DNA of 64,000 nucleotides from Antedon mediterranea. Lineage: Eukaryota > Animalia > Echinodermata. The notes under the pieces are model-generated. The model had not been told where the DNA came from. It made no database searches and saw nothing but the letters and a program-made list of their open reading frames with translations. The position numbers and the translations under genes are program-made. This document shows positions 1,811 to 43,832 of this stretch, piece by piece; the first letter of the stretch is position 1, and the number at the start of each line of letters is the position of its first letter. The stretch covers positions 24,428,001 to 24,492,000 of the forward strand of contig NC_092674.1 of NCBI RefSeq assembly GCF_964355755.1. Reading direction: 5' to 3'.

Positions 1811-1987
1811 AGCCATATGATACTATATTTGGCTTTTTTAATTAGGGTTGTGTTTGACACCTCCCTGCTATAAATGTTCCTACTTTACACTTTAAACAAT
1901 ATAAATTGATAATATTATTTTTGTTTATTTAAAAACTTATTAATTAAATTAGTGTACTTTTTAATTAGTCTTACAGTCTGGTTATCA

Positions 1988-4888: not shown

Positions 4889-6208
4889 TTATTTCCAGGC
4901 GTTTGTGGTATGCATCACGCTCTTGTACTTTTCAGAGCAAATGTATTTTTCAAGTTCACGAGGTATTCCAATACTATGTATGAGTTTTTTGTCGTTCAAA
5001 ATGTTTACTATTCCCAGGCAACTCCTTATTTTTAGGCGACAGAAATGTTTTAAATCGGGTGGTTGATGTAGATTAAGTTTGACAAAAATCAGTTCACTCA
5101 GGTATTCATCCGAGAGAAGATTCGGTTCGTTTCCTATTCGGTCGGCATAAATTGCCCAACTCGGGTTCGCGGTGTGTTCGACCAACGCTCGAAACGAACG
5201 GGAGCTTTTCAATTTTTTACCAACTCCTACTCTGGCGACTTGGGGATTTGAAAGCATAGATAAGTTGTCGAGAAATTCGAATAGCGGTATTCTACCTCTG
5301 TTATTCTTTATATCGGGATCTGCGCCGTGTTTTATGAGTTCGATAATTAAGTGATCTAGATGGCGTCGCGCTGCAATGTGCAACGCCGTGTCACCTCTGT
5401 TATTTTTCGCGTTGATGTCAATGTCAGACAATGGAACGAGTAACTGCACAATAGACATTGACCATCCAGAATCAATCATAGCACAGTGCAAAAGTGTATG
5501 GCCATCTGGTGTTACGACACCCGCGTTAGCAAAACCGTATTTCAGCAAATGTTTCACGCACATTGCAGAAGAATTTTCAACGGCTACAACAATTGGAGTT
5601 CGTTTTCTGTAATCAAGAGCTTCAACTTTGCAACCATTCGCAATCAAAGTGGTTATTGCTTCGTAGAGTCCAGCTTTAGCCGCCAAGTGCAATGCGTTGT
5701 GCTTTGTGTACGGATGTGGCAAGTTGACGTCTGCTCCATGGCTGCATAACGTGTCAACGATCTTATATGCGTACCAGTACGCGTCTGCTACTTTTCTACT
5801 TAACTCATTGTTGATGTCAAACGCAAGAAGCCTTTGGATGGCATGATGCAATGCCGTTAGACCCTGTAAATCTTTAATATTAGGATCGTATCCAGTTTTT
5901 ACAAGTAATTTTACAAATCTCAGATGCGTTCTGTTGTATTTTCCTACAGTGAACATTGAAAAAATAGAATGCAGTGGAAGTTCCTTTGAATCCAAGCCAC
6001 GTGGTATGGGCAGACCAGCAAGAGGCCCTTCGCAATGTTCTTTAAGTCGTTTGTCAATCAACTCTGTCCAGTTTATTTCTTCTGCCTTCTTCAATTTTTT
6101 CCGTAGAGTTTTGTAGCGTCTCTGAAGTATGCAACTTGTTGTAAATTTTAATGGGTCCTCTTCGAACGATGGAAGTTGTGAACGGTGCCGTGATCCTTTG
6201 TTACCCAT
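4889..6208 (-). CDS. Intronless ankyrin repeat and SOCS-box protein (ASB-like Cullin5-ElonginBC substrate receptor), 439 aa
   Basis: Single ORF with ankyrin repeats (GLTALHHA, HNALHLAAKAG, KRTPIVVA, GHTLLHCA, GDTALHIAARR, GRIPL). The C-terminus is a SOCS box, PPDLKHFCRLKIRSCLG...IHSIGIPRELEKYI (BC box plus Cul5-box-like IP). The N-terminus MGNKGS fits the N-myristoylation consensus. Confidence 0.9.
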   Translation of the reverse strand: MGNKGSRHRSQLPSFEEDPLKFTTSCILQRRYKTLRKKLKKAEEINWTELIDKRLKEHCEGPLAGLPIPRGLDSKELPLHSIFSMFTVGKYNRTHLRFVKLLVKTGYDPNIKDLQGLTALHHAIQRLLAFDINNELSRKVADAYWYAYKIVDTLCSHGADVNLPHPYTKHNALHLAAKAGLYEAITTLIANGCKVEALDYRKRTPIVVAVENSSAMCVKHLLKYGFANAGVVTPDGHTLLHCAMIDSGWSMSIVQLLVPLSDIDINAKNNRGDTALHIAARRHLDHLIIELIKHGADPDIKNNRGRIPLFEFLDNLSMLSNPQVARVGVGKKLKSSRSFRALVEHTANPSWAIYADRIGNEPNLLSDEYLSELIFVKLNLHQPPDLKHFCRLKIRSCLGIVNILNDKKLIHSIGIPRELEKYICSEKYKSVMHTTNAWK

Positions 6209-6982
6209 TATTTAAATAATGTACATTAATTAGCAACTTTAAGATGGTTTTTAACAAACTAGGCCCTAGGCTAGGTAGAGTAGAAATGCCTATTATTTTC
6301 AGAAAGACCACCTCCGCGTAGCATTTAATTTTAAATCGTGTACTCTTTAGAATGAATAAGCCCAAACAGTACGCCCATGGCAACCGTTGCGATAGATACG
6401 ATTTTACGCGCATTTTTATGATCGCGTGAAACTAGAAATTGTTCTGAAAATAATAACTCTGTCTACACTATAATGATATGGTAGTGATATGACCAAATAC
6501 GGTAGTTATGACATCATCATGTCCATATGGGCACAACACAGACAGAGCTTAACACCACAAGGGAAATGAAAAAAGTAACCAAATACAGTAGATGGGATAC
6601 CGAGACGTCTTCTGAATATAAAGATTTCTTGGGTCTTAAAACATAATGCTTCTCGTTCGATTTATATGGGAAAGTGTCCCCAAAATAGAGGACACTTCAT
6701 ATTCAGATTCATATTAAGTTAAGAGTACTTTATCTAGATTAATATAATATTAATACTGAATCACAATTTATTGTTGAGGAAGAAGGCCAATCCGTTTTAA
6801 CAGACTCAAGAGAAGTCTTTTTCTTAGACTTTTCTTAGGACAGACCGTCCAAAGACCTAATTCAACCATCGAACTCTGCTACTGTGTACACAGCATAATT
6901 GAATACTCGGGATTATAAACTAAGTATCAAGCGCCGATGCCGCAACCCCACATGTCCACATGTACTCCTACTGACTGCTAGC

Positions 6983-9900
6983 CTAGCCGTCATCTTTCCT
7001 CACTTCTTTTAGTTTCTTCTTTGGACGGCTCTGTAAGAAGTTTGGTTTTTTCTTTACCGGAGGCTTATCGACTGATTTTTCACGTATGAGGAGAAAAAAA
7101 AAAGCAAACAAATTAACTTTAATAACTGAATCATTGAGATGACCAAGAATTCTTAGAATCTTCTTCAAGAATGTATTTTATTTGAATGGAAAATAAATTT
7201 AAGAAGTGTTGGAATAAAGTTTGATAATTGCATATCAGTATTTTCATAACAGTAAGCAACAGTAACAGTATTTTTCATTTATGACAGTCATCCTATTTGT
7301 CCAAAACTAAATGTACGTACGTACATACTTAATGCTTGGTTCCCACTAGAGACGCAACACAACGTCGTTACGCAATGTAAGGGATTTGACCAATCACAAG
7401 CAATGTATTTATTCAACTGTCGCTTGTCATTGGTCAAATCGTTTACGTTGCGTCTACGTCTTTGCATTGCGTCCTAGTGGGAACAAAGCTTAATTCTATG
7501 CACCTACCCGGATGTGTTTTACAAGTGGTGTCATGATCAATGTGACCTCCTTCATCTATTGTACAAAAGTTAATGTATTCATGTAAATCTGCTTGGCTAT
7601 TTGCGAGTTTTAGATTTCGTCGTATCGTTGGTCGCTTTATCTTAAGACTTGATATGGCCTCACTCCTGATTCTGGGTTTTGGTTCTTGGTCACTTAAGGT
7701 ACTATTATCATTGACGTGGTGGATGTGTGATAGAATAGGCTCAGAAGGCGCTCCGAATTGTCCTAAACCTTCTGGGGTGGTATGGTCGTCTCTTTGGTAA
7801 TTTCCAGAAGGTGCGGATTGACTTAATGTACTGCATTGTTCGTCACCATCCTCTGACAGACAAACCGCATACACTGAATCGAAGTCTACTAAAGGGGTCA
7901 AAACAAAATTAACGTACAGTAGAATAATTAATAATAATATATCATAATCTATTATGTTTATAGGTGCTATTGTAAAGTTAGGTTTTGGACCCACTTTTAA
8001 AACATGCACCTTTTACTGTTTTGCAGTTTCTGTCTACAATTGCCTCCAAAAGAAGCCTATTAAGGAGACCTTCTTTTGTCCGTGATTCGTACAAGGAGCA
8101 ATATTGTCCTATGTGTTAACACTATGGCAAACGTGTGTTCAGGGACTCCCTATTACGGGAACATTGGTTATGAAGCGCAACAACGTTTCAAAGAAGAACA
8201 AACTTAAGATTAAATTACCACAGTACATATTTTTACCTGTCTCTGATTCATTCATTAAAGGTATAGAATATGTATCTTCGATGACCTGGCTTGACCTATT
8301 AGACATATCTTGATAATCTGAATCGTCCGAGTTCTGACGTGGACATACTATTGGAAAAATCGATGACATGGTTTGATATCCATCGCCAGCAGTTAGGTTA
8401 CAAGTTCGGTTGACGACGCCAGGACGCAATTGTCTCAAAGGTGATGACGTCGTCGTTGGTATTTCTTGGTAGACTCTATCAACTTTTCTGCGTAGAGGAC
8501 AGACACCTAGCGGGATCTGATCATCGTCGTCTGACGGCGTAGGTGGTATATCGTGATATATGGCATCATTATCTTCTAGCTGTATGTACGCATCATCTAT
8601 TGACGAAACTGCAACTTTTATACTTTTAAGCTTCCCAAGAGATATTCTTGGTGTTTTACCCTCAATGGCTACAGTAGGAGAAAGAAAACATGATGATTAA
8701 ACAGTGTTCCCTAAACAAGAAGCGTTTCCTTTTATGCTAAAGCTCTTTTTACACTACCAAACTTTATGTAACAAAAAATGTGATGTGCCCATATTATTAT
8801 GGACATGATGATGTCGTATCACTACCATTATTTGGGCATGTCACTACCATTATTTGAACACATCACACTTTTTTTGTCAAAAGAGTCACATTAGTCAACG
8901 TGATTCAGTGTGGACTGAGTCTCTAGCAGGTTGGCTATTTACGGGAGCGAAACGTTTATTAGTAAAGTTAAGCTTGGTTCCCTCTAGGACGCAACGCAAG
9001 GACGTAAGCCGCAACCCAAGCGATTGACCAATTGCAAGCGATGGTTAAGTCCAAATGTCGCCTGTGATTAGTCAATTCGCTTGCAATGCGGCTAACGTCC
9101 TAGTGGGGACCGGCCAAGCTTTAAGCGTTCTATCACGCATGGAAATACCGGTACGATTTCTGAGTGTTCTAAAACAAGTTTCCTTTACCCTTTTCATTGT
9201 AGTAATTTGGAACAACGTAATCTTCTTCACTTCCACTCTCCATCACTACTTCTTCTTCATCAGACAATATTGTAGTGGCTTTGGTATCATATTCAAAATT
9301 ACTGATCGTTTTAGCTCTTTGAACTGGATTAGTCGATTTTTTTTCACCCTCTGAAAATACAACAAAATTACATATTACAGACAAAGTATGCAGGAAACAA
9401 AACAAAAAGAAAAATAAACGTACCGTAACACTTTTTTTTGTTCATGAGGGCGCAACAGGTATGTGGATTTACACCTGTGTATTCTAAACAAAACAATGTC
9501 AATGATGCTAAATTGTTACTACAACAAAGTAGGCCTACAATAACTGGTCTGATAATAATCACATAATAGCTCAAAAAGAAATTGCTGGGGATTTACGGAT
9601 TATATTTATAAAGAATTAATCATGAAACAAGGTACGTTACCGATCATTATAATCTTTATCTTTACCTTTGTTTTGACAAGTATTTGATTCAGTGATTTTG
9701 GAAAGATTCGTGTCTGAGTTTGATTTCCCGTACTTGGGAGTCTTCGTTCGTCTGTAGCTGCCCCAGGCCGGAGGAAGTGCTGGTAAACGCCGGAACAAAT
9801 CCGATTTCTTAGATTTTTCTGTAAAAAATGTATTATTTGTTGTTGTAACTCGAGCGAACTCGATATACACGAATGAGGTATTGATTCGGCTTTTATTCTG

Positions 9901-12900
9901 TGGGAACATGTTATGTCTGTCGAACAGATTAGTCTGTGTGCCTATGCACATAGGTTGATCAACTCATTAATTTAACAAACCTAACTGTTACATAGATAAA
10001 TCATCTTTTTTTCTCCATAGTACATTAGGTACATAGAGTAATGTGAAACGGCAAAACCCCAATCGAGAGATTTTAACTCAGAAGATAATTCTATGGCACT
10101 TTTAGCAAAGTGCCTTTACCTAAAAACAGATATTAAAAGAGCTTTTGAAGTAAAAAACAATTCAAATTCAGTCCTTTCTGGACATCATTTGAATTCTGTC
10201 AATTTGTGGTATTACAACGAGCCGTTTAATGTTTCTCTAGTTTCTTTTTTTTAATCTGGGGTTTAATTTACCATTACCGTTTCAAATAAACTTACTATAG
10301 ACGATGTCATGTAGCCTACGTTCTGACCGAAATAGTAACAAATTTATTTTGACACATAAAGCGTTTATGTGTGTGATACTTGAGCTCACAATTTCGTAGT
10401 ACTCAGACAAAAATTCGAACGTCGATCGGTGGACTTGCATAAAAAAGACAATAACTACCGACTTGGGGCAAGTCCAGATGCCAAGATTTCAGAATGGCTA
10501 CTTACCTTGTGACTTATCACCACTTAGTACTGGTGAGGAACCTGGGGAACCTTCTGAACGTACTTCTGTATTGCTTAACTTCAACTGTTCTAACACATTT
10601 CTAACAATTGTTTGATTTTCTGAGAAGAAAACATTGACATGATTTTACAGGCATATTCGATGTAAGTGGATTACTTCATATACCAGTTGGCTCCACATTC
10701 ATGAGTTTGTATATCTGTTGCCAATATGCTAAGAAGGGGCATTTTTCTTCTACGTTCTTCAATGGCGTTTTATCATAATGTTCCTGTCGCCTGACAAACG
10801 ACACAGTGCTAGTTATGTAATTGCCAGTTATCTTATTATATTATCAAGGTGTTACACTTTATTATTTTTCACTTTATGAAACTTTCACGTTTTATGAAGT
10901 TTATGTTCCTATATTGTCGTATCTTCTGCATGTTTATTTTATTAAACGGATTAGGCCTACAGATAACAAGATTCATAAATAATGTTAACAAAATAGCATA
11001 GGCCTATGTATGAAAAAATATAGAGCTATTACCGTCTGTAAAAAAAAATGGTTCAGGACTCTCTTTCATACTTGAAGCGATTTGTGATTGAGCCTTGAAA
11101 ATCAATTGGCTATCAGTCGTGCATTTTAACCAAAATTGACTGTTATCCACTAATGCTTCTTTTACCATTTTAGCCTAAGTGAAATAATTCAGACAAAGAA
11201 GTTATTGTTTGAATGTTTATGTTTGTTTGTTTGTTGTTTGAAAACATTACCAGATTTTCCAGTTATTGACAGTTCTCAAGTATATAAACCAGCTATCATT
11301 TTGTATAATTAACATAATATTCAAAATGATCTTGTTATCATAATGTGTTAGCGGTACACAAACAGTTACTCTGCTGACTGTTTGTTAGATAAGGAATGGT
11401 TACGTAATGTATAACATTATACTGTACTTGCAAGCAGATCATCATTGTTGACCTAATGTTTTTCAACTTAATTTTAATTTTCTTTCGTGAAATAATGGTT
11501 TTTTTATTGTTTCACGATGCCACATTATTCTTACATCTTTGTTGTGTTTATAGTAATAACTTACCTTTTCCTTTTCGAAATAGACTATTTCTTTTATCAG
11601 TGAATCATTGAGTTCATGAAGGTCTTCAAGTCCCTGGATATAGAAATGATAATAATCAACAATGATAATGACCAACTATAATATTAATTAGGCCTAATTG
11701 TATATCTAATCCTTTTGCACTTTCCATTTTGGTGAACCACTTGGCAGCAATTTTCAATTTTTGATTATTACTGATATATGAATGAATATCTCTGTAAAGT
11801 TCCACACTGTGTTTGTGAATCTATTTTAGTCTAGGCAAAAAATCTGGAAAAAAAAATGAGTTAGGGGGAGTGGAATGTTAGAGGCTGTCAACATAGCCAG
11901 ATATCCTAATTAATCCCTTCTGATCACTCTAAGCTCTGTTGACACTTAATTTTAACCTTGTCTTGAAATGGCGGCCATTTTTCAAAATGGCGCTAATTGT
12001 ATATAAAATGTGCATAACATAAGATCTAAATAAGATAAATACACAATATTGGTGTCTAAACACATGTAATTCAGACACGGAATCCATTAGGCCTTGTTGA
12101 CACTTCAGTTTTTACTTCGTATTGAAATGGCGGCCATTTTGTTTATAACTTTTTTTACTGGAAAAAGTAAGACATTTTTGTTTCGGCATGAAAAAATAAT
12201 GGCATATTGCAATTTGTTTTGAAAACATGCAAACCTGTTTGTGTCTTCTTAATTTAGTTAATAAAAAAATGTGAACCTTTGACCCCCATCAGCAACTGGT
12301 TAGTTAATGCATAAATTAACTCTTCATGAAGGATTGGAAATTGTGATTTAAAACAAACTTTCTCTAGAAGTATAATTCATATTTTAAAAATATAATTCTT
12401 CTTTCAAAATAAAGTTAGACGTATTTTTCAAAATCAGGAAGTAATAATCAACATAAGCATAAAACATAAAAATTACCTTATTTAAATCAACTTCCATTTT
12501 GTCTTTGAATTCCAACCGTTTGCCACCAACAACTCTTTTCAGTGTGTTAATCTGCAACATTTATGAAATTACATTACTTGAATATTTGATCGGTCATTTA
12601 TTTGTTTGAAATATTTTTGGTATCTTTTATGTAAAGAGAATGATATAAATGTCGCTGTTGCCCAAAACATGATTGAAACTTTGAAAATGGTATTTAAATC
12701 AAATAGATCAATAATTTGAAATTTAGAAAAAAATGGTGTCATATAGTCTATAGTCTATATATTATAGATAAGATAATATAATATTTATTGGTCCATCATA
12801 AAATATGTTGGAAAGTCATTTTCCAAATGGCGTACACATACAAAAATACATATAAAAATTACAAATATAAATATATAAAAAGATACCATGTACTTAAAAA

Positions 12901-19690: not shown

Positions 19691-22600
19691 TCACTGGTCA
19701 TTTGAAGGACAAAGAGATGTGGAGATGTTCGATGGAGTTGGTTTACTTCTAAAAGGGGTTCCAACAAGTTCCGAAAATGTTCGAATATTATGGTCGTCGT
19801 TTGTGTGATATCTCGATGGAGCAGGCTTTCTGTCAGAAGACGATCGAAGAAGTCTTGAAACTGCTGAGATATTATCGCTTGGATTATGTCTGAAAGACGC
19901 GGAAGTATGCAAAACACTTGTATAGATATTTGATGAAGGTTCACCGCCGCCGGAAGTTGCTCCAAGATGCCTTGATACTTGTGGAATGCTGTGGTCGCCA
20001 ATATCTAAAACATAAACAGCATCAATGTATCACAATATATCGAAACAAATTTAACTGAATTTTGACATCTTAAATAGGCCTATTCATATTAATAAAGGTT
20101 TTTTTAAATTATTATTACTTTCAAAATTGTTATTGAGCTGCCCCAATTTGCTTGCCACACTTTACAAGGATAATCAAGTAAAACTTAACCAACAGTAACA
20201 TTATTAATGGAATCTGATTGTAGGATTTGATGAACTAAGAGTATATTTTCTTTTAAATTTTATTTCAACTACATATCTGCGTACTACAGAAACAATCAAT
20301 ACGAAATTACACAGTGACAATGAATGATAACTAACCACCAGTCAATGTAATATATTATATTATTATATTTTAGTTTCACCTGTTTTGGCAATATTCGATG
20401 AATTACCATCGCTGTTTACCGTGTCATTGGTCGGTATGTTTGTCTTTGTTCGCCGGGAACTTTTACTTTTCGTAAAAGATGGCAAACGCCAATTAAAATC
20501 AGATTTCTTGGCTTTATCTGTAAATCCAAAATAGAGTTTAAGATTATTTCATTCAACCAAGACTGAAACTGGTATATGTTAACACAAGATCCTAAGTTTA
20601 ACGGAGACACGTTCAATGAATACTGAAGTAAACCCCAGAAACTGAGGAAAATGTTTAGTAACGATAAAGAGCGCACTATGTCAGCCATGATGATATTTGA
20701 ATTTTGTGACGTCACAAATATATTAATTTTCTAAATGATAATTATAACACAAACAACAATAGTTTTTGACATTTTACTATGTAATGAAACCATAAGTAAC
20801 ATTAGTCGAGAAATCGATTTAGTTTACCGATTTTCGTATCGTTTTTTTTTCGTATTCTTATTTTAATTACCTTGTGATGTTTCACTACGTGGATTATCTG
20901 AACGTAGGCCTACTTCTGGATTACGTAACTTGTCTGAATGTTCTTCTAGATTACGTAACTTGTCTGAATGTTCTTCTGGATTACGTAACTTGTCTGAACG
21001 TTCTTGTGGATTACGTAACTTGTCTGAACGTTCTTCTGGATTACGTAACTTGTCTAAACGTTCTTCTGGACTACGTAACTTGTCTAAACGTTCTTCTGGA
21101 TTACGTAACTTGTATGAATGTTCTTCTGGATTACGTAACTTTAACTGATGTAAGGTATTTGTAACAATTGTCTGATTTTCTGTGAAAAAAAAAACATTTA
21201 TCACTATGTAGGCCTAATTAGGTACATAATTTTGTCAGTGGTAATAGGTCCAAAAGATTCTTCATTACTCGTACAGAAGGAATGCCTTCATAATAGTCAC
21301 TCAATATTAGGAATACTGTATAATGTTTAAATAATACCATTGAATATTATAGTTATTAGTAATGTTAATTTTACTTGCTTACTAATTACGTATATTACAT
21401 TGCACATCGTGATTAATTATACATATTGAGTTTTGGTTGTTGTTGAGCCAATGTCAAACAAGATTTGGATAGTAATTATTCCAAATAATGGGGTGTTTTA
21501 AATATTAAATAGATAAAGTTAAATAATATGTTATCATCGCAACATAACATAAATTACCAACCGAGAAAGGTACTACTATAGTATTAAATAATAGAAATTG
21601 AATAATCACCATCTGTAGAAGAAGATGATGGCTCTGAGCTGTCTTTTATATTTAGAGCGATTTTTGACTGAGCCTTGAATATCAGTCGGATGTCTGTTGA
21701 GCATTTTAACCAACACTCGCTGTTGGCCACTAGTACATCTCTGACCATTTTAGCCTATGGAAGCAATTTGAATTTTTTTAATCATCTGACAATAAATTAT
21801 TAGTATGTTAGGTTTTTTGCAGCAGAGAACAAAAAAAGACCTTTGTCCATAGGATTTGGTGTTTATTCTAGGAACAACCAGTATATTTTGATCAGCCGAA
21901 CGAAGACGAGCAAGAGGGGTTTAAGAGGGAAGAAGATCAAGTAGATAAGTAGGTTGTTTAAGTAGTCGCGCATTTTAATGTTAGTAAAAGGATCTTATGT
22001 TTTATAAGGGAGTCAATAGGTAGCCAATGGAGGTTATATATAAGGAGATATTTGTGACAATTAAGAAATTCTTGTAAATTGTCCGGACTCTACGCATCAT
22101 CTCCTAGTGCCATTTCTTTTTGTTTACGATGCTCTCAAATACTCTTCTATCGCATGATTTCCTACCTTCCACATCTCTCAGAGTGCTTTTACTTCTGTGC
22201 ATTAATGAGTTTGTTATTCATGGATAGTTTTTGTTTTCATCTTTGTTGTGTTGCCCATGTCTCGTCTTTACTTGTATCAACATTAATGCTGTTTTTTTTG
22301 TAACATTTAACAATTAAATTTTTATTTATTTCTCTATTTTTCCTCGCAATGTCATGTGATTTCCTGTGCTGCCTTGCTTCTTACATAAAAGTTTTAGTGA
22401 ATGACAAATTTTTAATAAATATTTTTTTTTGTATAGTAACAACTCACCTGTTCCTTTTCAAAACAGAATGTTTTTCGTGTCAGTTTTTCATTCAATTCAT
22501 AAAGGTCTTCAAGGCCCTGAATAATGTAATAATGAAATAAGCATAGAGTTTTTTTGTCACATCAAGTTTGATAGTGTAGACAGAGCTTAAATCAATGTTG

Positions 22601-24427
22601 TTCAGATTGATCAACGTGCTTAATACCCAAACAAAAGTCATCTTTAACTTTGCCAATGACTATTGATTATTACAGTTTGAAAACAAATTATTAATTAATA
22701 ATATTATATATAAGAAATACCTTATTTAACTCCACTTGCAGTTTGTCATTGAATTCCGCAAACCGTTTTCCGCCAACTAGTTTCACTGTGTTAATCTGTA
22801 AACATTATAAAATGGCATAATTAAATGTTAGAAATACGTTGGATAGAATCTTGGGTTTTCTAAGATGATTATTATAAATCACAAATCATTATAACAATTA
22901 AAAATATAAGGTATCAAAATAGTAAAAAAACTTGGGAGGAATAGAGATGCAGCTTGGTGGTTAAGATTATCGGCTTCGTATCCGGCCGAATCCATGGAGC
23001 CGGGTTCAAATCCCTTCAAGATTTTCACTACAAAAAAACTACAGTTATTTTGTTGTAGTGTATAAGTAGTATTAGAACTCCACTGTCAAAGCATCATGCG
23101 TATTATTTTTCTCGCGGATTGACACCTTTGGGGAGGACTGTGAATGAATTCGCTAATATTTTAATCTTTAGCTATATATAATGTAATAAAGAAAATAATA
23201 ATACAATTGTTTCCTTCTTTACCTTAGTTCGTATTCGAGATAGTTCCGTCTCTTTACTATTCCGTTTCTTCCTCAACAAATCAATACGTTCATGTTTCTG
23301 TTCAATGATCTTGAAAGTCGTTCTGAAGCCGTTGTACTATAGGAAATATGAGATTGTGTATGTTTTCTTGACTATTGTAGACGGACAATAGCAATATATT
23401 CGGCCTATTAAATAATTGTTTTGGTTTCATTGTTTAGTTCTCATATTTTCTGTCTTTCAGCAATAATATATATAATAACTGCTTTATCTGTGTGTGCCCC
23501 GTTTGAATTTAGATTAACACTCTGTAGCGACCATTGTCTGATTTCATTTCATTATTTATTTGGTCTTATTCACCAAAAAAAAAAAACAATTTTGGATACT
23601 AGGGTACGGTCACTGTGGCAGAGTCGGGTCAGCTGGGTGGAGATTGTTTTCCCGAAGATCCTATCGCTAATTTAAATGTTATTTATTACCATTACGTCAG
23701 AAGTAGACAATTTATATTACCTGTTTTCGTATATCCTGTAGTATGGAGCACATTGCATCATCCAAGGTAACCCAGTTGGAGAAAACCTCATAAAAAGCCG
23801 GGTTACTCTCATTTTTAGACCATTCCAACAGTGCACTTGATACTAATGTATAGAATAATATAAATAGGAAACCTCTCAGCAAAAGGATCCCAGCAATGGA
23901 AACAAGCCAATACCGGTAAGCTTTTTGGGCTATCATGGAAAACCTTTTATAAATGGATTTATTTGTAATGTCAGTAATTTATGTTATCACTTTGTATGTA
24001 TTTTTTATTTTTATTTTTCTAATAAATTCAAATCAAATAAAAATCATAATATGCAATTTTATTTGTATTTCGATGCACATTATATTAATGAATCAGGATT
24101 GGAAATGTTTAGATTGTACATTCTATTGATTGACTGGGTTATTTTGACATTACCTTTCAAAAAGTTAAACTTTTTTTATTTATTTATTTATTTATTCGGT
24201 ATATAAAAATATATTACAAAACGACAGTCAAGGACTGAAACTTCAATACATATAAGTGATGATATGTGCTTTGGAAAGAGATAAACACAATTCTTACAGT
24301 TTTTAATATTTCTTGATAGTGTTGTTACGGAATCCTTAACTGCGTGTTGATAAAACAAAACATCGTATATGTTACGTACACTAGTCGTCTTCATCATCCT
24401 ATGAATATTCTTCCCGATATTTGCCAT
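19691..24427 (-). CDS. Paralog B: BAR-like domain plus minisatellite-expanded, tyrosine-poor tail, 9 exons, ~462-471 aa
   Basis: Exons: 24427-24298, 23842-23721, 23336-23223, 22795-22721, 22516-22448, 21754-21610, 21179-20871, 20517-20407 (alternative in-phase donor at 20380), 20004-19691. All GT-AG, open frame, 1389 nt with the shorter exon 8. Confidence 0.8.
20905..21142 (-). repeat. Coding 30-bp minisatellite (~8 units, KLRNPEERSD) inside exon 7 of paralog B
   Basis: Unit TTCTTCTGGATTACGTAACTTGTCTGAACG repeats with a 30-nt period between a valid acceptor (21179) and donor (20871). Confidence 0.92.
21815..22075 (-). mobile_element. L2/CR1-type LINE 3' fragment
   Basis: The - strand reads LVVPRINTKSYGQRSF, characteristic of the C-terminus of L2 ORF2. 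Confidence 0.5.
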
Positions 24428-26843: not shown

Positions 26844-29800
26844 TCACTTTTTTTGCGAATAGGTTGTGTATTTTAAGTCCTCTTGGCTCTTTGAAAATTG
26901 TAGACTTTGGATCTTCGGTCCCTTAATATTGGTGGAGATAGATAGTGTAGGTTCACTACCAGAAGCCTTCTGAGGCGGCCCAAGAAGTTTCGATACGTTT
27001 GGCATGTTGTGGTGGTCGCTTGGATGATGTAGGTCTATTAAGGCTACGGAGGTACAAAGATCCAATACATCGACGGAGATTTTCGAAAGAGGAGGTTCTA
27101 TGATAGAAGGCGGTCCATGAACTTTTGGGGTGTTCTGGTCGTTATTTGGACGCTGCAAGGAGCTGAAGTATTCAATTTTGGTTGAGATTTTTGATAGAGT
27201 AGGTTCACCGTCAGAAGGCGCTTCAAGAAGTTTCGAAACCGTTGAGGTGTTGTTGTCATCGTTTGGATGTATTGAAGGTACCGACATACAACGATTCAAA
27301 ACGTTTGTGGAGATGCTTGGTGGAGAAGGTTCACTTTCAGAATGCTCTCCAAGATGTCGCGACACTTTTTGAACGTTATGGTATTTCACGCTATTGCAAG
27401 CTTTCTCGTAAAGGGCGTATACCGAACTGCAATCTACAAAAATTAAAACAAACTACAAAAAATTACGTTTTGTAGAAACATGGTTATAAACATAAAACAT
27501 GCCCTGTTTAATAACTATAGCAGCAACAAACAAGCGACTGTACTTGTATACCGTTCTTGTTCTTGAGACAACCGTTTTTATCACCAATTAGTCGCCAAAT
27601 CACTCCAACAAAATAGCCAAAAAATGTATTATGCTTACCTGACATGGGTTCAATTATTACAGGAACTTCATATTCATCTTCGATGATCTGATTTGAGCTT
27701 GTTGACATATCTTGATAATCTGAATCATCTGCTTCAGTAACAACATTTTGAAGTTGGCGTACCTTTGAAGAAATCGGTGACATGGTTTGATATCGATCAC
27801 GGTCTACGTCAATAGAAGGTGATGACGTAATTGGTAATTCTTTGTCGACTGGATCGTGTGAACTGACGTCCAACTGAACATTCATTTCTGCTATATCTTG
27901 ATATATGTCATCATCATCTATTATTCGTATGTATCTATCATCTTTCGAGTAAAGAGGAACTTCAATAATATACAACAAACACTTCATATGAAGGTGAAGG
28001 TATTCAAATCTGAACATAGGGTAATAAGCTGTTAGGAGCTCATTTTACTAAGCCTCGGCATTGGTAGGGTGGCCAGTTCCTTTCCATCGTACGCCGCCTT
28101 ATCCTCCCTAGAGTGTTTTTAACCAGGTACGCATTTACAGCTAGCTGAGTAGAGAAATTGAACCCAGCTCTCTCTGTATGCCCTAACCACTGGACTACCC
28201 AACTCCTTAAACGTTATATACAGCCTCAATAATATACTTGATAAAAAAGGTCTTATTCTCTATATAGAGTTCATTACCCTTCCAGGATTTAAACTATATT
28301 TAACTGAAATATATATGGTGAGTTTGTAGTAACAGACTGTTTATTTATTGTGTTATTAGTACTTTCTAATATGGATGTGATGTTTACCGTTTGTCGTAGT
28401 ATTACCTGTGGTTCCATAGATACTTGATGCATTGGTATTGCCTTGTTTTGTGTCTGAAGTTGATTTCCCGTATTTTGCAATCTTTGACAAGCGGGAACCC
28501 CATTTGCTAGTAGGAATAGCGGGTAAACTCCGGAAAAAATCCGTTTTCTTCGATTTTTCTGTAAAATGAGAAAAGTTAAGTCTCCACTGGCATACTTCCG
28601 AGTTTGTAAAAAAAGTTTCCAAAGTTTGCTATTATAGTGTAGGACAGTTGACAAACTTCGGAAACTTCAGAAAACAAGGTTGCATAAGTCATAAGTCTAC
28701 ACTACTTAAACTTCAGCACGCTGCAGATTTGTAAACAAAATTGTGGGTGTATAAACTATACTTAGAGATTATTTTCATTTTAATCGATACAAATGTGATT
28801 AGAAGTTCCGTTTCAGATTTCTGATTTACCTTGTGTTGGACTTTCTGACCGTACTTGAGAAATTAAACTCAACTTCAGCTTCTGTAAAACATTTCTAACA
28901 ACAGCTTGACTTTCTGTAAACAATTTACATCGAATGAAAACATTAGTAAATACAAATTTAGTAAATTATATCGGTCATATAGTCAGGACAGATGGCTTGG
29001 ATAACCTATCATTGACTGAAAAGATAGAAGGAAAGAGGAGCAGGGGTAGAAGTGATTTGGATGACAAGTGTAATTGAGTGGTTAACAGAAAAATGTGTAA
29101 AACATCAAGTTAGCGAAATATCGTTGATTAATAATAGGGAGCTTTCGATTGGTTAGATCCAAAATACGTGATGTTAAATCATTATGCGCAGGCGGGAAGA
29201 TTAAGACATTTCCCAGAAGCCACTCACCGTTATATTTGCAGCTACTTTGGCCAACATCTCCATAGTCACTAACACTCTCCAACTTGTCGCCAGACAAAGT
29301 TATCGATTGATATATTGAGGTATCAGCATCTGCAATATCGTCATTACTATTACTTTCAAGATCACTCGCCTGATCTTTGTAAATGGGATTAGTCGGTTCG
29401 TTATCCTCTAAAAAAAAAAGATTTCATCATCATTATAATTATCTAAAAAATTAAAAAAGGTTACCTTTTAAAAATTGTTTAGCAGGGTTTATTGTGTTTG
29501 TTTTTTTATGAAAACCCAAAACAATACCAAATCCTCAATTCACTGAACGTACTGATCAAAGGGTTTATCTGTTACACGATAGGTTTAGAAAAAGAAATTT
29601 ACATATAGTACAGTACTGTTGGTATTTGTCGCAGCAAGATAATAAGATCAAAGTACTGTTAAATTTTCATATCTTGGCAAGGCGATAACAGTGTTCTATT
29701 GTTAGATTGCCTTGATCTAACTGATCAATAATATTTATGTCTACCTGTAGTTTGGCAGATATTAGATTCAGTGACATTGTACAATGACGTTTCTGATGTT

Positions 29801-29931
29801 GAAGTATTTATCTGCATTGAATTCGAACGTCTGATCGTTGGTGGAAGAGATGGTAAACTCCGGAAAGAATCAGATTTCTTCAATTTTTCTGCAATTAAAA
29901 GTGATTGTGTTTTGAATGTTTATTCCAATTC

Positions 29932-29964
<33 letters not shown>

Positions 29965-32110
29965 CATCATTTTATTAGGCTAAACGGAAATTAATTTCCA
30001 TTAGTTCAATAACAATTATAAAATGTAATTGAATACAACAACAAAATTACCGTCTGTAAAAGTCAATGTGTCTGGGTTGTCATTCATATTCAATGCAATT
30101 TGTGATTGGGCCTTAAATATCAGTTGACTGTCAGTTGAGCATTTTAACCAACAATCGCTGTTTGCCACCAATGCCTCTTTTACCATTTTAGCCTAAGTAA
30201 ATAATTGTAAGAATATTATTTTTTTCATTTTCAGAACACTGTCAGACCATTTGCTGTCTGACTGCTAACGTAGCGGTACGCATTATTTTTTTCATATTAG
30301 GTTAAGGAAGAAACTATAGAGGGCGTGACCATGCATGTTTGTTCTGTCTCCGCGCCCGCAATAGACATTCACTTTCTCTGCATACGTTTTGGTTTCGGTA
30401 TTTGTGAATGGAAGTTTGATATATTTTAATACTTACTTTTTCCTTTTCGAAACGAACTATTTCTGTTTCCAGTAGATCGTTAATTTCATACAGTTCCTCA
30501 AGTCCCTGTAAAAGTATTAAAATAGTATCAATGACCGGAGTAATTATACATTAAGGCCTAAAAGCTAAAGTATACCGTATAATCCATGAAATGAAATATA
30601 ATGTTATTGTTCTCCACCAGCATGGTTTAATAATACCTTGTGTAGCTCAAATTTAAATTTGTCATTGAATTCAGACCATTTGACACCGACTCGTTTCATT
30701 GTGCTAATCTAGAAAAGATAAATTGCGTCTTTTAATTATTAATTCGTAAATAGTTTGGTTATGGCTTGAAACTTCTTTATATGAAAGCAAATTATTGTTA
30801 ACTTTGCTGCTGTGTTTATTATAATCTTATTTTTTTTACAAAAAAAAAAAACAATTTAGATACAGTAGAGCCCTAATAACGGTTCTGATTGGTCAACTCG
30901 CCTGAGTTGCGTCACGTTGTTGCGTTGCGTCTCTATAGTGGGAACCACGCTTCTATGGAAGAAGAAGCTGTAGGCCTATAATACTTACCTTCGTTCGAAT
31001 TCTAGCTATATCCGTTTGTTTGTCTTTCTTTTTCTTTCTCAGCACATCAATACACTCGTGTTTCATTTTAATGATCTTAAAAGTCTTTCTGAATTCGTTG
31101 CACTAGCGTATGAAAAAAAAACAACTAATTTATTAGTTATCAACTACATTAAATACTTCTTACATGTCTTCTAAAACATACTCAAAGGACGATGATTGAC
31201 GATAGATAAATATACGTTTTTCTTACAAAAAACAAAAGGAAATTATAGGTCTAGGAATAGGATAACGATAATGATCGACGATAAATAAGCATAATTTCTC
31301 TTAAACGTTTTCACCCTAAAACTAAGATAACCATGCTCTCTTTGATAATAAAACAAAACAATCCAAATGACGTCATAAGCAATAAGAACATTATAATCAT
31401 TGTATAATCACGATATTATTGCTATTACTATCATCATGACGTAATGTGATTGAACGTGTTAAAATAATTATTTTTTTCAAAGGCAGCATAAATAATTATC
31501 CTATATTAGTATGAACACTTTTCAAATTTGTATTATGTAATCAATATCATATATACTAGTTATCGTCGATCGTTATTGTTCTAGTATAAAATTGTTCACT
31601 GTGTATTTTTTATGGAGTAGACGATTGACATTACCTGTTTTAGTACATCCTGTAGTAGGAAGCAGCCTGCTTCGTCTAAGTTAAACCAGTTGGTGAAAAC
31701 GCCATGAAATGTTTGGTTACTCTCTCCTTGTGACCATTCCAACAGTGCTCTTGATACTAAATAAATAATATAAGATTGTTTATTTATTATTTTAAAACAA
31801 ACTTTTCTATGATTTTATGATTTTTAAGTTACCATTTTTGTGTTAACTCGGTTGCATGGTTTTCACAAGTTTAAATAAGGGTCGCTGACCGATGACATAA
31901 ATCTTACGAAACTGCAAAATACGTACAGGACATTTAGAAAGAAACTTTAAGCAAACATTTTTAATTCTTACAATTTTTGATATTGGTTATTAGTTGTCCT
32001 ATGGAATCCATAAGTGTGTTTTGGTAAAACAAAACATCGTTTATGATAGGTAATCCAGCCATCTTCTTCAACCTATGGACATCTCTACTTCCAATTGTCC
32101 TATTCGCCAT
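26844..32110 (-). CDS. Paralog C: BAR-like domain plus ITAM/YxxM/duplicated SH3-ligand tail, 12 exons, ~715 aa
   Basis: Exons: 32110-31972, 31756-31635, 31102-30989, 30708-30637, 30505-30437, 30192-30051, 29888-29745, 29407-29228, 28913-28830, 28558-28388, 27959-27639, 27433-26844. All GT-AG, 2148 nt, open. Contains EIVRFEKEKAKMVKEAL. Confidence 0.8.
28970..29052 (+). mobile_element. RTE-clade LINE 3' fragment
   Basis: Translates to YIGHIVRTDGLDNLSLTEKIEGKRSRGR, typical of the RTE ORF C-terminus. Confidence 0.55.
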
Positions 32111-34943: not shown

Positions 34944-37900
34944 TTAATGCTTTGGTGGCAATTCTGGTGGTGGTACGGGTGGTGGTAAAGTCGGTGGTGC
35001 TCTTCTTGGTCGTGGCCGTGGTTGTGGTTTAGGAGATACTACAAAAAGCAAAAACAAATGTAATGAAAATAATTGTGTATTCTCATATGAATATTAAAAG
35101 GAAACAACATTACAAAATAAAGACCCAACTAAATCATACCCACATGAGGTAATTTAAGCTCTCAAAAATAAATTAAGTTTATCTTGTACTTTTGTATCAC
35201 TTTTTAAAAGCAAGATCAAATGCTTTCACATGTTTAAATTTTCTAAACTCTTTCAATTGATGTGTATTTCAACTATCATTAACCATCACAAGCCAACCAT
35301 AGTCATCACTAATTATCTGATACTCATACCTTTCTGAGAGTCGGGTACATCTGGTGGATTAAACAATTGTAGTTTTCTGGCTAGATTAGGCGAGGTTTTC
35401 TTTTGTGGAACTGGTGGAGGCACAAAGACGTTTGCACTTCCACTATATTCATCAGGTACGGTTAATGGGATTGTTGTTTCCAAAGAACTTTTCTTAGGTG
35501 GCCTGGGAGGAGGCAGAGAAGGATTTAAATCTTCATATATCAAGTCACTATCTCGCATATCTTCACCAGGTCCATCTGCCATGACAGCGAGATACGATGT
35601 ATCATCAGAAAAGTCGAACTCTGTCTCTGTATCAGCTGATGGGTAAGATATATCTGTAGACAATCTCTGTTTTCCTATGTCTTGTAAAAACCCAGAAGGG
35701 TATTTTGGCTGGTCGAATCGTGGACTTGTACTCGGTGGTGGTTTGGTTGGAGGTTTCATAGCAGGTGAAAATCTTGGTTTTTCCATTCGTGAACTTGTAA
35801 TTGGTGATGCTTTGGTTGGAATTTTAATACCAGGTGGATATCTAGGCTGGTCCATGTCTTGCACCAAGAATGTATACTGACTGCCACCTGTAAAATGTAA
35901 ATATAGTGAGCTGAATTGGCTATTTTAAAGAGATTTATCATTTATTTTTTTAAGGCTCTATTATTAAAGACAATTTTATTTTATCTGTTATTACCATTTC
36001 CATTGTGAATTTCTGGTACCACATAATTCTCTTCATCGAGGTTGTCATTGTTCAATACTGTATATTCATCATCATCACTTGGATCGTCGTCAAATTCATC
36101 TTCATCTAGTTCTTCTGGTGGAACTTGAGGAAGCGGTCTTGAAATACTGGTTGAAGGCTCTTCCACAAGACACTCTGGCAGAGTAAAACTTTCTTTTAAT
36201 AATCATTCTTGAATTGGCTGCTAATTTTGTATGAATATACCAAAATGAGGTAAAGATATTTATTAATTGTCCTCAAATTTAACTACAAATTGAGGAAATT
36301 TATATTAGGCCTACTGACAGCAGTTGCGAGACAGTGTGCAGATCTGGGTTATTTTTGCAAAGTTTAGTTAGCTTACTGTTGCTTTAGTTTATCAATTTTT
36401 TTTATGATAATATTTAATATTAAAGCATACCTTTTGAGGTTTTATGAGAGAACTTTGGCAATTTTGTTCCAAAAGAGCTGAATATACTAGATTTGTGGTG
36501 GTCTTCTGTGTGATGTTGTAGGAAATCTGCAGATGTTTTTCGGGGCTGTGGTGAAATTTCTGCTTTTGTTTCCCGTTCTTGGAATGGTCTGCTGCTTTTG
36601 GTTGACTCTGCTGGCTTTGGTTGTTGTTCAGGCTTTTGTAAATTTAGTTTATGGAATGTTTTACGAACCAACATTTCATTTGCTGAAAAAAAAAATGCAA
36701 AAAAAAACTTTTACGGTCTGTTTCTGCTGCATAGTGCCGAATAAACTGTTTAACACCCCTGTCATTTGTCAATCAAATAAACCGATATTTTGGGTTTCAG
36801 CTAAAAGTTGCACCGCCTGCTATAACCGGTTAAATGGTGTTCTAACACCAATCAATTAGGTGTTTTAAATCATTATTTTTAGGCTGCCATTTAACCGGTT
36901 ATTGAAAATTTGTCCTGTTGCTGTTATTCACCGTTATTAACCAGTTATATTTCGCAACAGACTAAACAGGACCTTAGTATTAGTACAGTAAACCACAAGC
37001 CCATTCTTGTCTCACAATGCCAGATTTTGGGTTCAGTCTTGGCTCACTCATGATTAAAGTTCCTACTTCTCAATGGGATTCAGTTGAGAAGCGCATGCTT
37101 TAAATTCTCATCTTCTGAGATATGTTTAGAATTTTCAAATATTCATTTGTAAGATTTTTGTACTAAATCAGGTATTAAACTAAATGTTGTTCTTAGAAGT
37201 ATTGGTATAAATATTAACCATCAGTGACTTGATCTTCAAATATGACTGGCTTTGATGGCATTTCCTCTGCTATTTGAGACTGAGCTGTAAATATTTCCGA
37301 AGAGGTCTGAGCAAAGGTTAACCAGCCTTTGCTGTACACTTCTAGAGCATTCTTAATTGTTCTCGCCTAAGAAAAAATAACATTACACTTGTTCAGTAGT
37401 ATTAACAAGAGTTTGGCTCAATTTACTCTCCTTTCTCTTGCCTAGACCAATGTTACCATACAGTAAACTACAGCTAAAATTGTCTACTATAGGAGAGGGT
37501 TTATTATATATATATAGTCTATCTGTACATATTATAATAGATGGTACTGCCTTTATACTAATAGTTTTTATACTGTACAGTATTTTCCTCAATTTTACAT
37601 ACAGTACTTTACATAGAGTACCGCAAACTTATTACGTTAGGCCAGCTAGTGTTTTTTTACCAAATAATTTAATAAATAGTTTATTTCAATGATAGTAAAA
37701 CCTACCTTTGTCTTTTCAAACTCCTCTACAAATGCATTGAGCTCTTCAGCCATTCTTTTATCTTCTTGTTCAGCCTGCAATAATGGGAAAAATTTAAGAG
37801 TTTTCCATTTATACCCTATTTACACTATCACCGTAACAGCGGTGTAACCCCGCAGTTGTTAGTACACCGGGCCGTTAAACGCCGGTGTTGTGGTTTATAT

Positions 37901-40730
37901 TGACTGGTGTAAATGGGAAAATCCAACCACCCCGGTGTGCTCTCCCCGGGGTAAAACGAAGCTGAATGTATTCCGGTGTACCTTCTCCGGTGTAGTCGAA
38001 TCTACACCAGAGACACAAGGTGTAAACGGTTTTTGTGGTTCAAAACCGAGCTGTTAAAGGTCATTGACGTGAAAATGTAATATTTTGTCACAGAAATACA
38101 ATATATTATGCAAACAAAATAGTTTTTTTGCTTAAAATATACACCCCTTTTTTGCTTAGAACAATAATTGTACGATATGTGCTGTTCGTTATTTTCTTTT
38201 AAAGGCACAAACACATTTGTGACTTTTCTTTTCTGCTGAAAATATTGAAATTGTTCGTGTGCATTTACCAGAAAGCCTAAAATAATTTGATATTGGTGTA
38301 ACTCTACCCTGGCCGATTCTATGTAGGCCTAATTATAGAAAAAGGGAAAATATATAATACTGACGTCTCAATGGATGAAAAATGATATCTTTTTTAGGAA
38401 CTGAAAAAGTACCATAATAATGTTCCTTCATTGATACATTGTTATGCTTATTAAGAAATACATTTTTTATTTTAAATACTTACCGTACCTACCCTATTTT
38501 TACGCCAACCTAACAATTTAAGGCCTATTTAATGTACGTACAGTCTACAAGGCGGAAATGCAGTCATTTTAAAAAGAAAAATAATTGTTAGGCCCTAATT
38601 TTTAAAATAATAAATGATAACCTTAATAGCCACAAAGAAAATATAACACTGGACTACATTCAAAATTAAATAAATTGTGTGTAAATTCGGATTATTATGT
38701 TTTTATATGAGATTTGTCGATATGTTCCAGTGTTTAAACGTTTTAAACCATAGTCAGTTAAGTTCCACGTGTGCGCTTGCAATACTGATTTGATTGACAG
38801 CACCGGGGTGATAGATGTAGTGTAAATGGGCGCAACTCGAGTTCATCTCGCAGTTTTTTTGGCTAGTGTAAATGGAAATTGCCTCCGAGTTCAACTCGTG
38901 TTCCTCTCTCAGTCGATAGTGTAAAAAGGGTATTATAGATAAGGTGATCGAGAGTATTGGTCAGCTGGAACAGTTCATTCTAGAGTTATGAAAGCTTTGG
39001 CATGAAAATGGCAGGACTATTTATATGTAGCTTTTTTCGTTTACAAACTAATATTGAGGTAGAATCAAATATCAGGAATGGTCAATTATTTCATTAGACA
39101 GCCAAACTTACCAACATCAATTCAGACTCCAAAGTATCAAGACGCTCTGGTTTCTTGCTAGCCTTCTTAAGTGCATTCACCTTTAAATATAATAGAAATA
39201 AATTAGTAGTAATGATGAGGGCAGAATATCTGTTCGTCAGTTACAGTAGTGTACAAAGTAGAACCTTAACTTCGGGAAACCTCTATCCAGGAGACATACA
39301 TCCTGTGAAACGAACAAGAGGCAAGTCACATGGCCAACCTTATTTAGGAGATGCTAGGTCCCAAAGATGTCCACCCGAAGATGTCTACCTGAAGATGTCC
39401 ACCCGAAGATGTCCAGAAAGAGGTTCTTAAAAACAATAAAGTAGCCTACTTGGGTAATCTCTTTCCTGTGAAATGATGACCAATATATTATGTTTCAACA
39501 TGCACTGCTCGCAACCCCTACTCAAGGAAAACCTTTATTAAGGCGACAATTTGCTGGGTTCTGAATGTGTCCCATTAATATAGGTTCTTTTGCATTATTA
39601 TGTTACCTTTAATTTTAATTTATACACTTCATTTGCTTTTGATTCCTTCTTTTTCATAAGCTCACACATTATTCTTTCTTCTTCTTTTATTCCTTTGAAC
39701 ACTTGCCGATAGTTTGCAAACTGGAAAAATAAATTTCAAAAATGTTATATTAAAAAAAAAAGCAAGAAAATTATGACAAAATTTGACATCAGCATAATGT
39801 AAATTACACTTTTTGAGCTCACAAGCCAACCATCTAAAATCTTGTGCTTTTCACAATTTTTTTTCTATGTTTAAAAAAATTTACAATTTGATTGATCCAG
39901 TCGCTCAGGATGTTTCTCCCTATTTTTTTTAATATATTTATGAGGGTGATCCATCCAGCAATTGCTGATTATTAGGGACCCCCATAGGTTCACAAGACAA
40001 ACATATACACAAGATGCTCTACATCAACAAAGTCTTATTACAAGTCTTTGGGAGTGGAGTTGTAATTTTGTCCTTAGAAAAAATCCTAACATGTGACAGG
40101 ATTTGAACCCAGGACTATTGAATTGGTAGCCCAGCATCATAACCACCAAGCCACAACTCCACTCCAAAGGCAGGAACATCTTCTTTAATATAACAATTGT
40201 ACACATACTTCACCATGTAATTCTTGTAACAATAACCACAGCGCATTATCCAAATCAAACCAATTAGTTAAAACGTCACTAAAAGTGAAATTAGTTTCCG
40301 CTTGACCCCATCGCATTACTGCTCTTGATGCTAAATAGAAAATATATTAAACAATTAATTTTAAATTATCAGAAATAAGTAGCAATACTTATAGTTAATT
40401 TTTAAATGCATTATTATAGGCAGACAATAGTTTGAACATTAATTTTACACAAAAACACAATAAAAAAAAGTATACAGTACATAATATGACATTTGATAGG
40501 CTTATTATGTTTAACATAAAGGAAGACTGCTAAAAAACAAACTTGTGAAAGTGCCATTACTTCCTTGTAGAAATAAATGAAGTCTTACATTCTATTATAG
40601 CTTTTTGAAATTTAGCAACAGATTCTATCAATGTTTTCTGTAGGAATAGGACTTCATCAAGAACTGGTGCATTGGTGAACTTAATCATTAACTTTTGAAA
40701 GTTTCTTCCGACTTTACTCGACGTCATCAT
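34944..40730 (-). CDS. Paralog D (most divergent): BAR-like domain plus acidic-Tyr and proline-rich tail, 10 exons, ~582 aa
   Basis: Exons: 40730-40589, 40330-40209, 39720-39607, 39180-39112, 37774-37706, 37366-37219, 36682-36431, 36174-35995, 35887-35330, 35038-34944. All GT-AG, 1749 nt, open. Exons 2, 3 and 5 have the same sizes (122, 114, 69 nt) and phases as in copies A-C. Confidence 0.82.
37811..38932. mobile_element. ~1.1-kb non-autonomous TIR element (Harbinger-like) in intron 4 of paralog D
   Basis: ATACCCTATTTACACTATC at the left and GATAGTGTAAAAAGGGTAT at the right, with repeated GTGTAAATGG subterminal motifs. Confidence 0.6.
40025..40166 (-). mobile_element. tRNA-derived SINE fragment
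   Basis: TGGCTTGGTGGTTA...GGGTTCAAATCCTG (A and B boxes) without a proper cloverleaf. A related head occurs at ~22949-23090 (+). Confidence 0.55.
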
Positions 40731-41580: not shown

Positions 41581-41710
41581 ACGTTAATCATGTTTGAGAG
41601 GTACAAAATATACCTCCTGTTGTAGTTTTGTAAATTGTACACTTGGGCCTAGTTAATTAAATTATTAATAATTAATATAACAAAATATTTCTGAACGGGA
41701 TTATGTTAAT

Positions 41711-42087
41711 CCCTTCTCTTCCTCCCCTCTTCTCTTCCTCCCCTCTTCTCTTCCTCCCCTCCTCTCTTCCTCCCCTCCTCTCTTCCTCCCCTCCTCTCTT
41801 CCTCTCCTCCTCTCTTCCTCTCCTCCTCCCCTCCTCTCTTCCTCTCCTCCTCTCTTCCTCCCCTTCTCTCTTCCTCTCTTCCTCCCTTTCTCTCTTCCTC
41901 CCCTCCTCCCCTCCTCCCCTCCTCTCTTCCTCCCTTCCTCCCCTCCTCCCTTCCTCCCCTCCTCCCTTCCTCCCCTCCTCCCTTCCTCCCCTCCTCTCTT
42001 CCTCCCCTTCTCTCTGCCTCCCCTCTTCCCCTCCTCCCTTCCTTCCATCCTCTCTTCCTCCCCTTCTCTCTTCCTTCCCTCCTCTCT
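41711..42087. repeat. Polypyrimidine/polypurine low-complexity tract
   Basis: Almost exclusively C and T, with a degenerate (CCTCCTCTCTTCCTCC)n pattern. Confidence 0.9.
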
Positions 42088-43667: not shown

Positions 43668-43832
43668 CTCCTCTCTTCCTCCTCTTCCCTATATTTTTAG
43701 CTTATTTTGGTTTATTTATTTCATTTACATTTTAATGTTCTTTTTGCTATTTTGTTTATTTTATTATCCATACAGTATTACAGGTATTTTAAAAATAAGA
43801 TGCAAATAAATTAAAATCAAACTCGTTCTTTT

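Follow-up and report, generated by a model that had tools for sequence, protein, structure and literature searches.

Four tandem paralogs and their neighbours

We analysed a window of 64,000 nucleotides from Antedon mediterranea (contig NC_092674.1, positions 24,428,001 to 24,492,000) and, by comparing this stretch with itself, identified four tandem paralogs (A to D) on the minus strand. The 13 exons of the paralog A model (15533-6983) join in frame with GT-AG borders and encode 682 aa. The parts of this model and the other members of the array are the following:

15533-15398, 13753-13632, 13147-13034, 12551-12477, 11633-11565 and 11174-11033, minus strand: paralog A exons 1-6, core of the predicted BAR domain
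10619-10506, 9818-9666, 9483-9424 (possible micro-exon) and 9350-9189, minus strand: paralog A exons 7-10
8237..8668, minus strand: predicted motif exon of paralog A, exon 11 of 13, phase 1-1
8547..8588, minus strand: ITAM-like pair YxxL-x6-YxxI (Y410 and Y420 of the paralog A model), from a six-frame scan
7888-7508, minus strand: paralog A exon 12, with Y533 and the YxN site Y631
7071 to the stop codon at 6985-6983, minus strand: paralog A exon 13, uncertain, with a weak acceptor
19691..24427, minus strand: paralog B, 471-aa model with a BAR domain and a 10-residue repeat, without acidic tyrosine motifs
26844..32110, minus strand: paralog C, 709-aa model
27933-27892, minus strand: homologous pair YxxI-x6-YxxI of paralog C
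34944..40730, minus strand: paralog D, 582 aa, RefSeq XP_071951088.1 (Antedon mediterranea)

The initial annotation had placed a canonical ITAM in exon 10 of paralog A. The six-frame scan of the window does find AVSSIDDA-YIQL-EDNDAI-YHDI on the minus strand at 8588-8547, the first Tyr codon of YxxL-x6-YxxI starting at 8588 and the last Ile codon ending at 8547, and the exon that carries it is number 10 without, or number 11 with, the possible 60-nt micro-exon at 9483-9424. The pair lies inside a 185-codon stop-free stretch (8696-8142), in a predicted phase 1-1 exon (8668-8237) bounded by AG and GT, whose acceptor outscores more than 92%, and whose donor more than 99%, of all minus-strand AG/GT sites under a leave-one-out matrix, and whose GC content is 0.42 versus 0.33 in the introns of paralog A. 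Further tyrosine sites in this exon are Y449 (YxxI, 8471), Y480 and Y501 (YxxM, 8378 and 8315) and Y516 (YxxP, 8270). Exon 10 has at its end Y373 (9219), an acidic YxxP site conserved across the family. All tail exons are in phase 1-1, which eases exon gain and loss. An atlas search with the motif exon returned unnamed clusters alone, of low recognition value.

The longer ITAM pattern carries a D/E-x7-D/E-xx prefix, for which paralogs A and C gave no match. Y410 and Y420 form two Yxx[L/I] half-sites with a six-residue spacer, at the short end of the published consensus Yxx[I/L]x(6-9)Yxx[L/I] (PMC9546547, in its available part), and an acidic residue stands three positions before the first Tyr, so that the consensus match and the acidic context proposed at the outset were both recovered. 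The accessible portion of PMC8005572 held nothing on ITAM spacer length. The description of the protein as soluble also agrees with the paralog A model: none of the paralog models has a transmembrane (TM) segment, the highest 19-residue Kyte-Doolittle mean in paralog A is 0.85, and the region 6200-15600 holds no unmodelled hydrophobic phase-1 exon candidate.

We rejected read-through of paralog A into a downstream ankyrin ORF, because paralog A has its own stop at 6985, with AATAAA-type signals following at 6772 and at 6329, and because the ORF has an ATG of its own. The ORF itself (4889-6208, minus strand) is intronless, encodes 439 aa with ankyrin repeats and a C-terminal SOCS box (Pfam), is ASB-like, and lies 775 bases downstream of the paralog A stop on the same strand; its MGxxxS start is of the myristoylation type. 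A sequencing run (X1) supposed to be RNA was read as DNA, since introns are covered in it at low depth, just as in the DNA run X2, and among the joints listed for it there are repeat-to-repeat joints exclusively.

Using the aligned sixth exons as query, we retrieved one protein, XP_071951088.1, which is letter-for-letter equal to our paralog D model and thus provides a check on the modelling method. Paralog D has a BAR domain, acidic YxxL and YxxP sites and a proline-rich tail, without the ITAM pair. Exon 7 of paralog B contains a 30-nt (10-residue) tandem repeat (20913-21141) and none of the three tail tyrosines of this paralog falls in an acidic motif; its BAR domain is under purifying selection, and we regard paralog B as a candidate signalling-dead partner. 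In paralog C, a tail exon pair is duplicated and reordered at 28406-29888 (minus strand), with the counterpart of A exon 7 standing between two copies of an exon that matches A exon 8.

Other features of the window include a small three-exon ankyrin-repeat gene on the plus strand (~1975-3741), whose middle exon matches Ank families in Pfam and which we take to be ANKRD39-like, and a multi-exon gene, also on the plus strand (~46600-60234), whose first exon encodes an N-terminal hydrophobic segment and has no Pfam match; we assume that the latter resembles DIPK2A/C3orf58. Elements of ~160 bp with terminal inverted repeats, which are MITE-like and high-copy in the DNA runs, occur at 484-640, 7329-7493, 8968-9105, 14091-14240 and 61941-62060. 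Upstream of paralog D, there are CT-rich low-complexity blocks (41700-44700) and a ~260-bp inverted repeat pair (42110-42371 and 43398-43660) flanking a further repeat array. A 50-bp tandem repeat in near-identical copies (55955-56239) is the source of four six-frame ITAM-like matches with long spacers.

The N-terminal domain and its relatives

We searched 1.84 billion representatives with residues 1-237 of paralog D (HMMER, E<=0.001) and obtained 31 proteins; a word-based search with the BAR region of paralog D matched paralog D itself alone. Nine of the ten matches that we looked up bear names, all as uncharacterised proteins, from Anneissia, Amphiura, Holothuria, Diadema, Acanthaster, Ptychodera, Convolutriloba, Branchiostoma and Savillea parva, and these named records represent five echinoderm classes, a hemichordate, amphioxus, an acoel and Savillea parva.

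The domain of paralog D, modelled from a 34-row alignment (pLDDT 90.8), consists of a low-confidence helix at the N-terminus, then three long helices and, at the C-terminus, a short one, and its three long kinked helices, over about 200 residues, superpose on BAR domains. All 14 listed Foldseek matches at E<=0.001 are BAR-type, as are the best 50 in VIA. Lsp1 and then Pil1 rank first in Foldseek (E 8e-7 to 2e-6; Lsp1 E=8.2e-7), FAM92A has the best TM-score (0.73/0.81), and in VIA the three tie, with Z 16.7 for Lsp1 (rmsd 5.2, 200 aligned), 16.5 for Pil1 (3.5, 204) and 16.4 for FAM92A (2.1, 209). The Pil1/Lsp1 superposition extends over the extra C-terminal helix to residue 237; since some rows of the alignment behind the model score as Pil1, this structural match is not fully independent. 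A fold predicted from the single sequence (pLDDT 68.6), which the alignment-based model replaced, had no match in Foldseek at E<=0.001, and a wide search with it gave BIN1 at Z 13.2.

Searching Pfam with 12 single exons gave no match at the cut-off. Against PF13805 (Pil1/Lsp1), paralog D scores 16.3 bits, below the cut-off of 27, and against PF06730 (FAM92/CIBAR) paralog D (16.6) and the Anneissia ortholog (22.5) are both below the cut-off of 23.6. Among 30 relatives, seven reach the Pil1 cut-off, one of them exactly at it, and none reaches that of FAM92. The full family profile, which contains the Pil1-scoring rows, prefers Lsp1/Pil1 (7e-18 versus 9e-7 for FAM92A); on the other hand, a 16-row deuterostome/acoel profile without these rows gives FAM92A 8.2e-7 (residues 112-201) versus 0.0027 for Lsp1. 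Compared with the four Pil1-scoring outliers, this latter profile gives a match of 98.7% over 198 columns, and one relative (P0010) matches yeast Pil1 directly (1.4e-14). With the profiles split and VIA giving a tie, the domain may stand closer either to Pil1/Lsp1 or to FAM92. P0010, P0022, P0028 and their relatives group with the named animal sequences in our tree and pass the Pfam Pil1 cut-off, and they may form an animal branch of the eisosome-type BAR family.

For paralog A the fold assignment is carried over from the structure model made on paralog D, and a profile built exclusively from outside relatives scores paralog A at E=1.5e-40 over residues 4-236. The BAR-like domain of the initial annotation is thus upheld, and the N-terminal ~235 residues are, according to the model, a BAR domain closest to the fungal eisosome proteins Pil1/Lsp1 and to FAM92/CIBAR. 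Pil1/Lsp1 resemble paralog D in fold and differ in lacking the long tyrosine-rich tail, whereas FAM92/CIBAR superposes best but shares 15-16% identity, with a sequence match that covers the C-terminal half alone. As to a possible N-terminal amphipathic helix and a basic surface for membrane binding, the N-terminal 11-mer of paralog A has a moment of 0.72 and a net charge of +3, and its residues 95-145 contain 18 K/R versus 8 D/E, both values being given without a control set. Over the BAR exons, dN/dS is 0.29 for A-C (CI 0.19-0.45), 0.38 for A-B (CI 0.26-0.58) and 0.39 for B-C, all intervals lying below 0.65, which indicates purifying selection and argues against decay of the gene copies. Among the literature matches listed (mostly main texts in non-subscription journals), we found none on this BAR family or on a BAR protein with an ITAM, and the part of PMC13312728 at hand treats eisosomes for fungi alone.

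Chance, selection and conservation at the tyrosine sites

The AT-rich window holds, over its six frames, 21 matches to YxxL/I-x6-8-YxxL/I; therefore, the bare pattern is uninformative and its context has to decide. When the residues of the paralog A tail were shuffled, the pattern appeared in 2.4% of 20,000 trials, and in 0.3% together with the acidic residue at -3; when the three existing Yxx[L/I] blocks were kept intact, it appeared in 4.3% (tail) or 12% (exon) of the shuffles. Acidic Yxx[ILMVP] contexts surround 8 of the 17 tail tyrosines, compared with 2.1 in shuffles (0 of 5000 reach 8), and many relatives in the family show the same enrichment.

Paralog C keeps both half-sites and the spacing at the homologous place, with Leu replaced by Ile at +3. 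In neutral simulations at distances of 0.47-0.69, both half-sites survive in 2.9-0.8% of cases, hence they have probably been under selection, which favours the initial annotation. However, the two YxxM sites and the YxxP site of the motif exon are also kept in paralog C (joint neutral probability <=0.002, versus 0.008-0.029 for the pair), so the ITAM pair is not singled out, and the third YxxI site (Y449) is lost there. The unchanged spacing is itself uninformative, as it is expected by chance in 73% of cases given 3 indels in 100 columns. In the aligned tail segment, A and C share 5 of 6 tyrosines and 13 of 16 aspartates, at an overall dN/dS of 0.93. Judged from these sequence comparisons, selection acting on each docking site separately accounts for the data no less well than selection on the tandem motif.

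We built a tree from 33 BAR regions, leaving out P0015 and P0023 (fragmentary) and P0033-P0036 (near-duplicates). In this tree, the sister of the A+B+C group is the Anneissia protein, P0002 (100/99); within that group A and B pair to the exclusion of C, and D splits off earlier. A clade of A-D that excludes Anneissia is rejected (p-AU 0.0009). P0002 and paralog A have in common the YxxP exon end, whose gap-free score of 36 exceeds that of all 300 shuffles, and a basic/proline C-terminus. The ITAM pair is absent from P0002, for which we had the single annotated isoform of one other crinoid, as well as from paralogs B and D. We place no weight on a residue-level counterpart in Anneissia in which the second Tyr would be present and the first replaced by Ile, since its score of 22 falls below the 95% shuffle level of 26.

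Our outside set comprised 35 proteins, 23 of which have tails of at least 150 aa. No YxxL/I-x6-12-YxxL/I was found in these 23 tails, where merely 0.24 would be expected by chance, so this absence means non-conservation rather than avoidance. An acidic YxxP site is present in 17 and an acid-[ILV]-Tyr site in 14 of them, and the acidic YxxP site is thus the constant of the family in these sequences. If Val is allowed at +3, YxxV pairs appear near the C-termini of three outside tails (P0032, P0033 and P0034), at a non-homologous place. P0015, which has no tail and is not among the 23, matches the pattern inside a hydrophobic insert of its BAR region that is likely a gene-model error. Both tyrosines and their spacing, whose conservation in orthologs the initial annotation proposed as a check, are therefore shared with paralog C but not with the Anneissia ortholog or the outside relatives, an outcome that the initial annotation had listed as speaking against it; its interpretation is thus supported in part. 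The simplest history compatible with these sequences would be that the pair arose in the Antedon lineage before C separated from A and B, and that B lost it together with all such sites; it is also possible that the pair was lost in Anneissia or is carried there by an unannotated isoform.

A proposed phosphotyrosine scaffold and competing readings

We consider it somewhat better than an even bet (probability about 0.55) that paralog A serves as a multisite phosphotyrosine scaffold anchored by its BAR domain, and that the ITAM-like pair represents recently acquired, Antedon-lineage docking sites whose spacing is likely beside the point. This proposal builds on the BAR-homologous N-terminus, the absence of a TM segment from the model and the acidic contexts of the tail tyrosines. 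The predicted BAR fold would dimerise on anionic or curved membrane, as expected of BAR domains; Src-family kinases would then phosphorylate the acid-Ile-Tyr sites, and partners with a single SH2 domain would dock on the disordered tail according to their preferences. Src-family SH2 domains would bind the YxxI sites, PI3K p85 the two YxxM sites, Nck/Crk-type adaptors the YxxP sites and Grb2-type adaptors the YxN site. Y410 and Y420 would be two of about eight such SH2 docking sites, which is more probable than their being an old switch of the immune-receptor kind, and docking may link membrane shape to actin and lipid signalling. SLP-76/BLNK, LAT and Gab/Dos are multisite phosphotyrosine adaptors, and paralog A similarly has several distinct tyrosine motifs and proline-rich stretches in a disordered, acidic tail, but it would be targeted to the membrane by a BAR domain rather than by an SH2 domain, a PH domain or a TM helix; the likeness is one of features, and we claim no homology. 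Two points run counter to the scaffold: paralog C retains both half-sites with a conservative Leu-to-Ile change, as a working ITAM predicts, and the ortholog comparison comprises one annotated isoform of one other crinoid.

The pair may instead be a working ITAM, with BAR-driven membrane binding and clustering, double phosphorylation by Src-family kinases and recruitment of the tandem SH2 domains of Syk/Shark, independently of a receptor as in moesin; we hold this to be unlikely, although deserving of serious attention. In its favour are the fit to the consensus, the acidic residue before the first Tyr (shuffle P 0.003) and the survival of the pair in paralog C, and the downstream YxxM sites would suit a Syk-PI3K output. 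For a sea star egg, the accessible text of PMC11593052 lists transcripts of Syk and HTK16, and Syk and Shark homologs are reported alongside cnidarian TM Alr proteins that carry ITAMs in the part of PMC9546547 at hand. However, neither the Anneissia ortholog nor paralogs B and D nor any of the 23 outside tails has the pair, the block-preserving shuffles leave a chance of 4-12%, the prefix is absent and the spacer is as short as the consensus allows, and the loose ITAM pattern has 1085 matches in mouse (PMC6189171, in part). A true Syk/Shark ITAM is compatible with all observations and does not exclude a role as scaffold. It is improbable that the motif is never made because paralog A or its motif exon is not expressed, being a decaying duplicate or a skipped exon. 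Paralogs A, B and C were not found as database proteins, as searches with A exon words over proteins of 87-2000 and 252-2000 aa gave D alone or nothing, which is weak evidence, and the last acceptor of paralog A is poor (16th percentile) and that of the C motif exon is a weak AAG (62nd percentile). But the 13 exons join in frame over 682 aa, the same modelling method reproduces RefSeq paralog D exactly, the BAR domains of A, B and C are constrained (dN/dS 0.29-0.39) and the splice sites of the motif exon are good. That the two half-sites are unselected low-complexity sequence with a chance resemblance to an ITAM would agree with the 21 six-frame matches and with the dN/dS of 0.93, but is very improbable, given the preferential retention of tyrosines and acidic neighbours between A and C and the strong enrichment of acidic tyrosine motifs.

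The ITAMs of immunoreceptor chains, Drosophila Draper and Hydractinia Alr proteins have the same two Yxx[L/I] half-sites, the published 6-9 spacing and an acidic context. In contrast to them, paralog A has neither a TM segment nor an ectodomain, its pair is not conserved in the ortholog, and this candidate motif, known from sequence, stands among at least six other tyrosine sites. The initial annotation regarded an ITAM outside a TM chain as unusual; the model of paralog A is indeed non-TM, but ITAMs on non-TM, membrane-recruited proteins are already known and the arrangement is hence not new. Moesin, a cytosolic protein whose recruitment depends on PIP2, uses an ITAM-like motif to signal via Syk during phagocytosis that needs no receptor (PMC6189171, available part), and the ITAM-like motif of RhoH binds ZAP-70 (PMC2980477, likewise in part). 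Both offer a working model for the initial idea. The ERM motif, as far as the excerpt of PMC6189171 goes, lies in the FERM domain, has a spacer of 10 residues and shows conservation from worm to mouse, whereas the pair of paralog A, which is lineage-restricted, is located in a disordered tail that follows a BAR domain.

A bolder scheme, which we rate as a long shot, is that animals kept a Pil1/Lsp1-like BAR family and feather stars gained a true ITAM in it, so that a lattice on curved or PIP2-rich membrane would cluster the tails and fire Syk/Shark and PI3K without a receptor, the tail-less paralog B acting as a heterodimerising decoy. If the pair does work as an ITAM, Syk-family signalling could be set off via a BAR scaffold by nothing more than membrane shape, and this would be a second receptor-independent ITAM route besides that of moesin, arisen recently by exon gain. 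Without a working ITAM, the locus still exposes an unnamed animal BAR family that links Pil1/Lsp1 and FAM92/CIBAR and has conserved acidic YxxP sites, and this adaptor family is of at least as much interest as the motif. With members rich (A, C and D) and poor (B) in tyrosine, the tandem array lends itself readily to testing.
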